Below, in pieces: positions 29 to 199 of a DNA stretch of 276 nucleotides (positions are counted from its first letter, which is position 1; each line of letters begins with the position of its first letter). Location: NCBI RefSeq assembly GCF_003334405.1, contig NZ_QOWM01000072.1, one strand, 5' to 3'. Made by a program: the position numbers and the translations under genes. The notes below the pieces were generated by a model. The model saw only the letters and a list, made by a program, of their open reading frames with translations, did no database searches and was not told the DNA's origin. The stretch is from Escherichia coli (lineage in GTDB: Bacteria > Pseudomonadota > Gammaproteobacteria > Enterobacterales > Enterobacteriaceae).

Positions 29-199
29 CCTTAAAGAAGCGTACTTTGCAGTGCTCACACAGATTGTCTGATGAAAAGTGAATAGCAAGGCGTTTACGCG
101 TTGGGAGTGAGGCTGAAGAGAATAAGGCCGTTCGCTTTCTATTAATGAAAGCTCACCCTACACGAAAATATCACGCAACGCGTGATAAGCAATTTTCGT
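29..199 (+). other. 16S-23S internal transcribed spacer (ITS1), 5' portion, of the tRNA-Glu spacer type; transcribed and removed during processing, non-coding
   Basis: Seen in sequence: it lies between the 16S 3' end (28) and the tRNA 5' end (200), and has no long ORF. Established knowledge: enterobacterial rrn operons carry either tRNA-Glu or tRNA-Ile plus tRNA-Ala in this spacer. The spacer text (CCTTAAAGAAGCGTACTTTG...GCTGAAGAGAATAAGGCCGTTCGCTTTCTATTAATGAAAGCTCACCCTACACGAAAATATCACGCAACGCGTGATAAGCAATTTTCGT) matches my recollection of the E. coli tRNA-Glu type spacer; this was not verified by alignment. Confidence 0.85.

Follow-up and report, generated by a model that had tools for sequence, protein, structure and literature searches.

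The DNA analyzed here, referred to as the window, is a 276-nt stretch of an Escherichia coli rRNA operon. It runs from the 3' end of the 16S rRNA to tRNA-Glu, and positions 29-199 constitute the first half of the 16S-23S spacer, in the E. coli K-12-type 16S-to-tRNA-Glu arrangement. Three features define the layout:

1-28, + strand: 3' end of the 16S rRNA (Rfam match and annotation)
94-199, + strand: optional structured spacer block of 106 nt, probably 'rsl' (long/short spacer alignment)
200-275 by ARAGORN, 200-272 by Rfam, + strand: tRNA-Glu with anticodon UUC

K-12-type E. coli genomes match the window at 100% identity, and one copy is carried by the clpB-linked operon rrnG of one K-12-like genome. 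The only open reading frames are mechanical ones of 20-33 aa inside the rRNA operon, and a coding reading was rejected. A promoter reading was also rejected, with no promoter found in the window.

Alignment of long and short spacers showed that short-form spacers possess 20 unrelated nt in place of 94-199, and that the 3' edge of the block is exactly the tRNA 5' end. The block was present in 2,791 of the 5,426 complete E. coli genomes and absent from the remaining 2,635. A total of 4,008 block places were found, from one up to seven per genome (median 1), all of them intergenic and in rRNA operons and nearly all at least 99% identical. In these 5,426 genomes the block is always located upstream of tRNA-Glu and never ahead of tRNA-Ile. 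The 42-nt hairpin described below occurs at the same 4,008 places and nowhere else. A dispersed repeat palindrome of the REP/BIME, ERIC or MITE kind was rejected, since all copies adjoin tRNA-Glu in rRNA operons. A scan of a plasmid collection gave only one match, on a 1.4-Mb E. coli replicon, and a scan of viral contigs gave none.

Going by MG1655 coordinates, we take the block to be absent from two of the four K-12 tRNA-Glu operons. Because about half of the E. coli genomes lack it, the block is not required for tRNA-Glu release or maturation. The 2,635 genomes without the block imply that any effect is modulatory. The leader of the short form displays no significant structure (z 0.03), with its last 6 nt unpaired. 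The best hairpin copy is 95-99% identical in 84 records, and the sequence of the variant allele comes from two of them (loci L014 and L016). In both, the loop AAC is changed to AGA at bases 178-179 and both stems are intact.

Spacer alleles also differ outside the block, by substitutions at window positions 43, 49, 73-74, 80 and 83. Long and short forms are told apart by 73-74 and 83 (GATGAAAAG...ATAGC versus GATAGAAAG...AAAGC, respectively). Both spacer forms vary at positions 43 and 49, and one long-form allele has a different base at position 80. Judged from the sequences, these substitutions suggest recombination tracts longer than the 106-nt block.

A spacer element of E. coli designated rsl behaves in the same way, as a 16S-tRNA-Glu block present in some rrn operons or strains and absent from others. 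Harvey and colleagues reportedly found 106 nt of rsl replaced by 20 nt, and these sizes match our long/short alignment exactly. Their description is said to treat rsl as a polymorphism of unexplained function and to contain no cross-genus covariation. Going by the title of that paper and the matching sizes, the block is probably rsl. The original report appears as a cited reference in PMC4696680 (Harvey, Hill, Squires & Squires 1988, J Bacteriol 170:1235); in the literature searched, 'ribosomal spacer loop' or rsl was found only in a reference list.

The last part of the block folds into a hairpin with two helices stacked in tiers, composed of the following elements:

160-201, + strand: two-tier leader hairpin P4, 42 nt, with an outer helix of 9 bp, 160-168/193-201 (fold, covariance model)
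169-187, + strand: inner (apical) helix P4b of 8 bp, 169-176/180-187, with loop AAC at 177-179 (folding, pair probabilities)
188-192, + strand: 3' bulge AGCAA between inner and outer helices (comparison of genera)
193-199, + strand: tRNA-Glu 5' leader from -7 to -1 (UUUUCGU), which is the 3' strand of the outer helix (folding)

The inner helix had been recognized in the first-pass annotation as a perfect inverted repeat ending 12 nt before the tRNA. Both points agree with our check: TATCACGC (169-176) is the exact reverse complement of GCGTGATA (180-187) around AAC, and ARAGORN and Rfam both start the tRNA at 200. Taken alone, the 8-bp repeat is nominally unusual and not compelling: when the spacer or the window is dinucleotide-shuffled, 1.5-2.3% of the shuffles contain some perfect 8-bp inverted repeat with a loop of 3-8 nt. 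We judge it real because the structure is conserved in other genera.

A longer imperfect palindrome, 160-201, has this repeat at its tip. Its outer helix pairs 160-168 (ACACGAAAA) with 193-201 (UUUUCGUGU), and the final two pairs involve G+1 and U+2 of the tRNA. The 19-mer at 169-187 folds with -7.6 kcal/mol (z -3.4), and the 42-nt hairpin with -16.6 kcal/mol (z -5.26), where none of 200 shuffles was as stable. The 19-nt hairpin proposed earlier as the functional unit is replaced by the larger unit 160-201, which itself lies inside the block 94-199.

Partition-function folds gave pair probabilities of 0.95-1.0 from 170/186 to 175/181. For the innermost pair C176-G180 the value was lower, 0.84-0.87 across the contexts compared, in line with the earlier remark that this pair may open. 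The outermost pair of the inner helix, U169-A187, reached 0.60-0.76. The outer helix (162-168/193-199) is context-dependent, with pair probabilities of 0.4-0.8, and the acceptor pairs 1-72 and 2-71 compete with it in the partition-function folds. In the full-window minimum-energy fold, the leader bases G(-2) and U(-1) at 198-199 pair with C74 and G73 at 272-273 and lengthen the acceptor stem to 9 bp. C74/G73 is thus a third competitor for the leader besides the outer helix in that fold.

A separate complementarity was noticed between ACGCGTTG (96-103) and CAACGCGT (176-183), which are perfectly complementary, 72 nt apart, and both contain the self-complementary ACGCGT. It would be a possible alternative pairing of the 3' strand of the small hairpin P0, described below, with the apex of the leader hairpin. 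Checked by eye in the spacers of Cedecea, Pantoea and Tatumella, this complementarity is not conserved.

Related spacers were sought in about 100,000 genomes, one per species, with a pattern consisting of the 16S 3' end and the tRNA-Glu start at a distance of 141-201 nt; the hairpin itself was not part of the pattern. A total of 10 loci from 7 species were found. When the last 40-45 nt before the tRNA were folded independently, the same architecture was obtained in Cedecea, Limnobaculum, Tatumella, Pantoea, Providencia and Zobellella. The outer helix has 9-11 bp and the inner one 4-9 bp, with 4-7 nt in the 3' bulge and 3-5 nt in the loop. The leader hairpin has z values from -3.2 to -6.0 in these six other genera. 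Conservation among relatives with the long spacer, which the first-pass annotation had made a test of its hairpin, thus extends to six genera, and within E. coli the one variant allele sampled differs in two loop bases.

Several features are common to all of them. The 3' strand of the outer helix ends at -1 in 7/7 genera and is A/U-rich in each, and an upstream AC able to pair with G+1/U+2 is invariant in all seven. The bulge is always asymmetric, on the 3' side, with 4-7 nt (AGCAA, AGCAA, GUCAA, GACAGCA, GUGCAA, AAAG and AACC), and a GCAA or CAA motif is usual in it (6 of the 7 genera counted). The inner stem is fully paired in every genus and its sequences differ entirely, as is seen from its two arms:

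E. coli: UAUCACGC / GCGUGAUA
Cedecea: UAUCACCC / GGGUGAUA
Limnobaculum: UAUCGAACC / GGUUCGAUA
Tatumella: GCGAAUC / GAUUCGC
Providencia: GCCAAUC / GAUUGGU
Zobellella: CGCGAAG / CUUCGCG

Between E. coli and Cedecea, 7 of the 42 positions differ, and these amount to two full compensatory pairs (164/197 and 175/181) and three loop bases. A long spacer by itself does not denote the block: the 161-nt 16S-to-tRNA-Glu spacer of Avibacterium paragallinarum (locus L007, 1340-1500, minus strand) has no leader hairpin (z +0.35), so long spacers are not all homologous to it. A covariance model of the hairpin matched only tRNA-Glu leaders, with E values of 1e-7 to 1e-10, and gave no match to the short-form loci and about 72 kb of flanking DNA. 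Two metagenome scans, one with an anchor outside the hairpin and one with the bulge and 3' strand, also returned no matches.

Pairs were counted on the covariance-model alignment of 8 distinct sequences from 7 genera, which is a small set. For the whole hairpin, 86% of cells are paired, compared with 67% in shuffles, and 13 of the 18 pairs have changed on both sides; 0 of 500 shuffles reached any of these measures, a comparison in which related sequences may beat column shuffles without structure. When the register was slid as a control, the paired cells dropped to 29-49%. This drop and the full turnover of inner-stem sequence argue against an artefact of kinship here. The outer helix is 100% paired in the 8 sequences, with 7 of 9 pairs compensatory. 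The corresponding 70% for the inner helix is an underestimate owing to a one-column offset between E. coli and Cedecea in both the MAFFT and the covariance-model alignments. The offset arises from length differences, and the inner helix was therefore counted sequence by sequence. Covariation of the two arms, which had been proposed as a check, is present as compensatory changes in both helices across the 7 genera.

The pairs also tell which strand is concerned. Three G·U pairs were found on the + strand, two in Providencia and one in Pantoea, and no A·C pairs; the remaining block has many G·U pairs on the + strand as well. The Providencia fold is weaker by 5 kcal/mol when the minus strand is folded. 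The G·U pairs together with the strand-asymmetric bulge point to RNA of the + strand, that is, the rRNA precursor. The compensatory changes in both helices in seven genera, with G·U pairs on the + strand only, support the hairpin as an RNA-level structure under selection. The earlier idea of a leader hairpin that shapes processing holds in this part, and its extent has to be changed: in our folding models the 19-nt unit becomes a 42-nt hairpin that reaches the cleavage site.

Two readings at the level of DNA or of the opposite strand are affected by these data. Perfect 8-bp arms around a 3-bp centre could constitute a DNA palindrome, serving as the operator of a dimeric protein or extruding as a cruciform, and the outer hexamers TATCAC (169-174) and GTGATA (182-187) presumably recall half-sites of the phage lambda operator. 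Yet the half-sites differ between genera (GCGAATC, GCCAATC, CGCGAAG) and it is the pairing that is kept, along with G·U pairs and a strand-asymmetric bulge, and no promoter-like site was found in the window. We consider this reading very improbable. The lambda-like hexamers are spaced by 7 bp instead of 5, and other genera do not share the arm sequences.

Alternatively, the hairpin may serve as a terminator for antisense transcription, as on the minus strand it is directly followed by UUUUCGUG. The terminator scan did flag this site in E. coli (minus strand, 187-169) and its counterpart in Cedecea. However, Limnobaculum and Pantoea were not flagged, and the sequences of Tatumella, Providencia and Zobellella, read by eye, show a short or displaced U-run. 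On the minus strand each G·U pair would turn into an A·C mismatch, and both the 3' bulge and the outer helix would be left unexplained. We give this explanation hardly any credence.

Other signals of transcription were screened and rejected. No intrinsic terminator site was found on the + strand in the window, where the five bases AGCAA separate the stem from UUUU, as opposed to the 0-2 nt that such a terminator allows. A boxB-boxA antiterminator was rejected, as the boxA consensus TGCTCTTTAACAA was unmatched at up to 3 mismatches. In the Limnobaculum locus L012, the minus strand at 204-231 contains TTGACT-16-GATAAT inside the hairpin, promoter-like at 10 of 12 positions; chance alone predicts 0.6 matches of this kind in the locus.

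The leader hairpin is the last of the domains in the block. It is preceded by a small hairpin and then by a three-way junction:

86-103, + strand: small hairpin P0 (CAA.GCG UUUA CGC.UUG), which lies across the left boundary of the block (less well supported, with 77% of cells paired)
104-158, + strand: three-way junction of P1 (104-110/153-158), P2 (111-114/126-129) and P3 (134-139/147-152) (single-sequence folds, consensus fold)

Single-sequence folds gave the same block architecture in E. coli, Pantoea, Tatumella, Limnobaculum and Cedecea. In a five-genus alignment, 91% of cells are paired and shuffles give 82%, none of 500 reaching the observed value; all cells of P3 are paired (100%), and 3 of its 6 pairs are compensatory. 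The hairpin was found in all three Providencia alcalifaciens loci (L008, L009 and L010), where one long hairpin (GGAGAUACGUUUU...GAAGCGUAUCUU) stands instead of the three-way junction. According to these folds, the hairpin adjoining the tRNA is the part kept in Providencia alcalifaciens. At 94-199, Rfam 15 returned no family at E<=1 for the window and four relatives; the only families found were 16S, tRNA and StyR-44, which is downstream of the tRNA. StyR-44 (RF01830) lies in the tRNA-Glu-to-23S half, above the gathering score in Cedecea (L013, 575-707) and below it in Pantoea (L004, 534-654) and Limnobaculum (L012, 395-512).

The conservation of the other domains suggests that selection may concern the module as a whole and not the RNase P site. 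A rival explanation is harmless compaction: the block would be an optional insert resembling an expansion segment with no specific job, whose helices are kept only because 106 nt of unfolded insert between 16S and the tRNA would form wrong structures with adjacent sequence or draw in nucleases or Rho. This conforms to a block that is dispensable and polymorphic within E. coli, sporadic in Enterobacterales (10 loci in 7 species among the roughly 100,000 species genomes) and locally folded in all its parts, and to the published literature searched, in which neither a phenotype nor a processing site was found. It leaves unexplained why the 3' strand ends at -1 in seven genera, why the asymmetric 3' bulge carries a recurring (G)CAA, and why the upstream AC able to pair with tRNA +1/+2 is invariant. 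On balance we regard compaction as a rather unlikely explanation that still deserves serious weight.

The conserved multi-helix fold of the whole block is also what a stable spacer RNA would possess. Such an RNA, of about 138 nt, would be released by RNase III (about 33 nt after 16S) and RNase P and would act in trans as a sponge or by binding a protein. Its 3' end would be left base-paired by the RNase P cut. Precedents from rRNA operons are StyR-44 and the rrA/rrB/rrF sRNAs (PMC8144298). StyR-44 is likewise an RNA of the 16S-23S spacer of Enterobacterales, derived from the rRNA precursor and seen on Northern blots. It differs in being located between the tRNA and 23S, in occurring in all seven operons and in having an Rfam model, whereas the block is upstream of tRNA-Glu, optional and without a model. 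The StyR-44 authors themselves could not rule out a processing intermediate, of a metastable kind, which weakens the precedent.

Regulatory RNAs derived from trailers or spacers are exemplified by 3'ETS-leuZ. Both 3'ETS-leuZ and rrA/rrB/rrF are pieces of stable-RNA precursors, released by processing and ended by a hairpin, as the block might be. Their partners are known (sRNAs, Hfq, CsrA), while the block is dispensable and has no known target or partner, and no such RNA was found in the literature searched. A stable spacer RNA is accordingly unlikely in our view. The same low standing is given to the broader notion of the block as a spacer-encoded RNA, stabilised by its 3'-terminal hairpin, that acts in trans or gates the supply of tRNA-Glu. 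To our knowledge, the tRNA-Glu genes of E. coli are located only in rRNA operons.

We favor a role in cis at the RNase P site. Starting from what is demonstrated, namely a fold conserved by compensatory change, anchored at the tRNA 5' end, linked only to tRNA-Glu within rRNA operons, and dispensable, we propose that selection may act through the processing or decay of the precursor. The hairpin would form in the primary rRNA/tRNA transcript as the last domain of the folded 106-nt module. Its outer helix would use leader positions -1 to -7 and could invade +1/+2 of the tRNA. As the helix spans these positions, the RNase P cleavage site would be placed at its foot rather than after a single-stranded leader. 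RNase P would then meet a sequestered leader and may cut more slowly or later than on the leader of the short form. After the cut, the excised spacer would end flush in a helix, which might hinder 3'-to-5' exonucleases. Sequestration of the leader at the RNase P site, with an effect on processing or decay of the precursor, has in our estimate an even chance of being the selected role.

Published work on RNase P provides a basis for this proposal. The RNase P protein binds the single-stranded leader, and a stable stem-loop near the cleavage site in the leader reduces the RNase P rate by about 10-fold (PMC10731613). Leaders with G(-2)U(-1) can pair with RCCA, extend the acceptor stem and slow the reaction (PMC10731613). 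The closest known case is the inhibitory stem-loop in the 5' leader of valV in the valV-valW precursor, described as giving about 10-fold slower cleavage and setting the order of processing (Zhao & Harris 2019, summarised in PMC10731613). In both cases a stable helix occupies the part of a bacterial pre-tRNA leader bound by the RNase P protein. The valV type has its helix over leader positions of about -1 to -8, and here the predicted outer helix 162-168/193-199 is conserved by covariation. They differ in that the helix predicted here reaches -1, may invade +1/+2, and is set within a 106-nt module of an rRNA operon.

Our search found no literature on the processing or stability of the long-form leader, and none specific to the mosaic pattern or secondary structure of this spacer. 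The long-form leader is not mentioned in Romero 2014, Stead 2011 and Shinhara 2011. The published processing maps consulted, which mostly display short-form operons, list no cut at the hairpin.

These maps bear on a further explanation, in which the hairpin is an entry site for an endonuclease. RNase III might cut at the bulged hairpin, as at the single-cut hairpins of phage T7, or RNase E might be guided to the AU-rich 3' strand, where AA|UUU fits the motif RN|WUU. In either event RNase P would be left with a short leader. The 17 bp in two coaxial helices, the 3' bulge of conserved size and the A/U-rich 3' strand in all genera would be in agreement with this. RNase III hairpins of the T7 R1.1 type consist of two coaxial helices of about 8-10 bp with an asymmetric internal loop. 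We take the present hairpin to resemble them, and its 3' strand to resemble the RNase E motif. Unlike the T7 R1.1 type, it has an uninterrupted 5' strand and bulges on the 3' side only. Moreover, among the sites listed in two genome-wide RNase III maps, which may have dropped reads mapping to both identical copies, rrsB-gltT has only a 16S-proximal site and a site 3' of gltT, and no cut at the leader. The predicted RNase E motif is low in information, and its bases are paired in the outer helix. We regard endonuclease entry as decidedly unlikely.

The significance of the block depends on which of these explanations is right. As nothing more than a well-folded optional insert, it would illustrate selection for harmless folding. 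If it encodes a stable RNA, a structured RNA family would have gone unnoticed in the best-studied operon of the best-studied bacterium, and strains with and without the block would differ in a regulated step. In any case, an RNA fold supported by covariation and absent from Rfam is located in a spacer usually used as a marker for strain typing. If the hairpin governs how fast or in what order RNase P cuts, K-12 would possess two kinds of tRNA-Glu precursor (rrnB/rrnG versus rrnC/rrnE) that mature differently. Natural strains would then differ in the same respect, which would bear on the coupling of rRNA and tRNA-Glu output.
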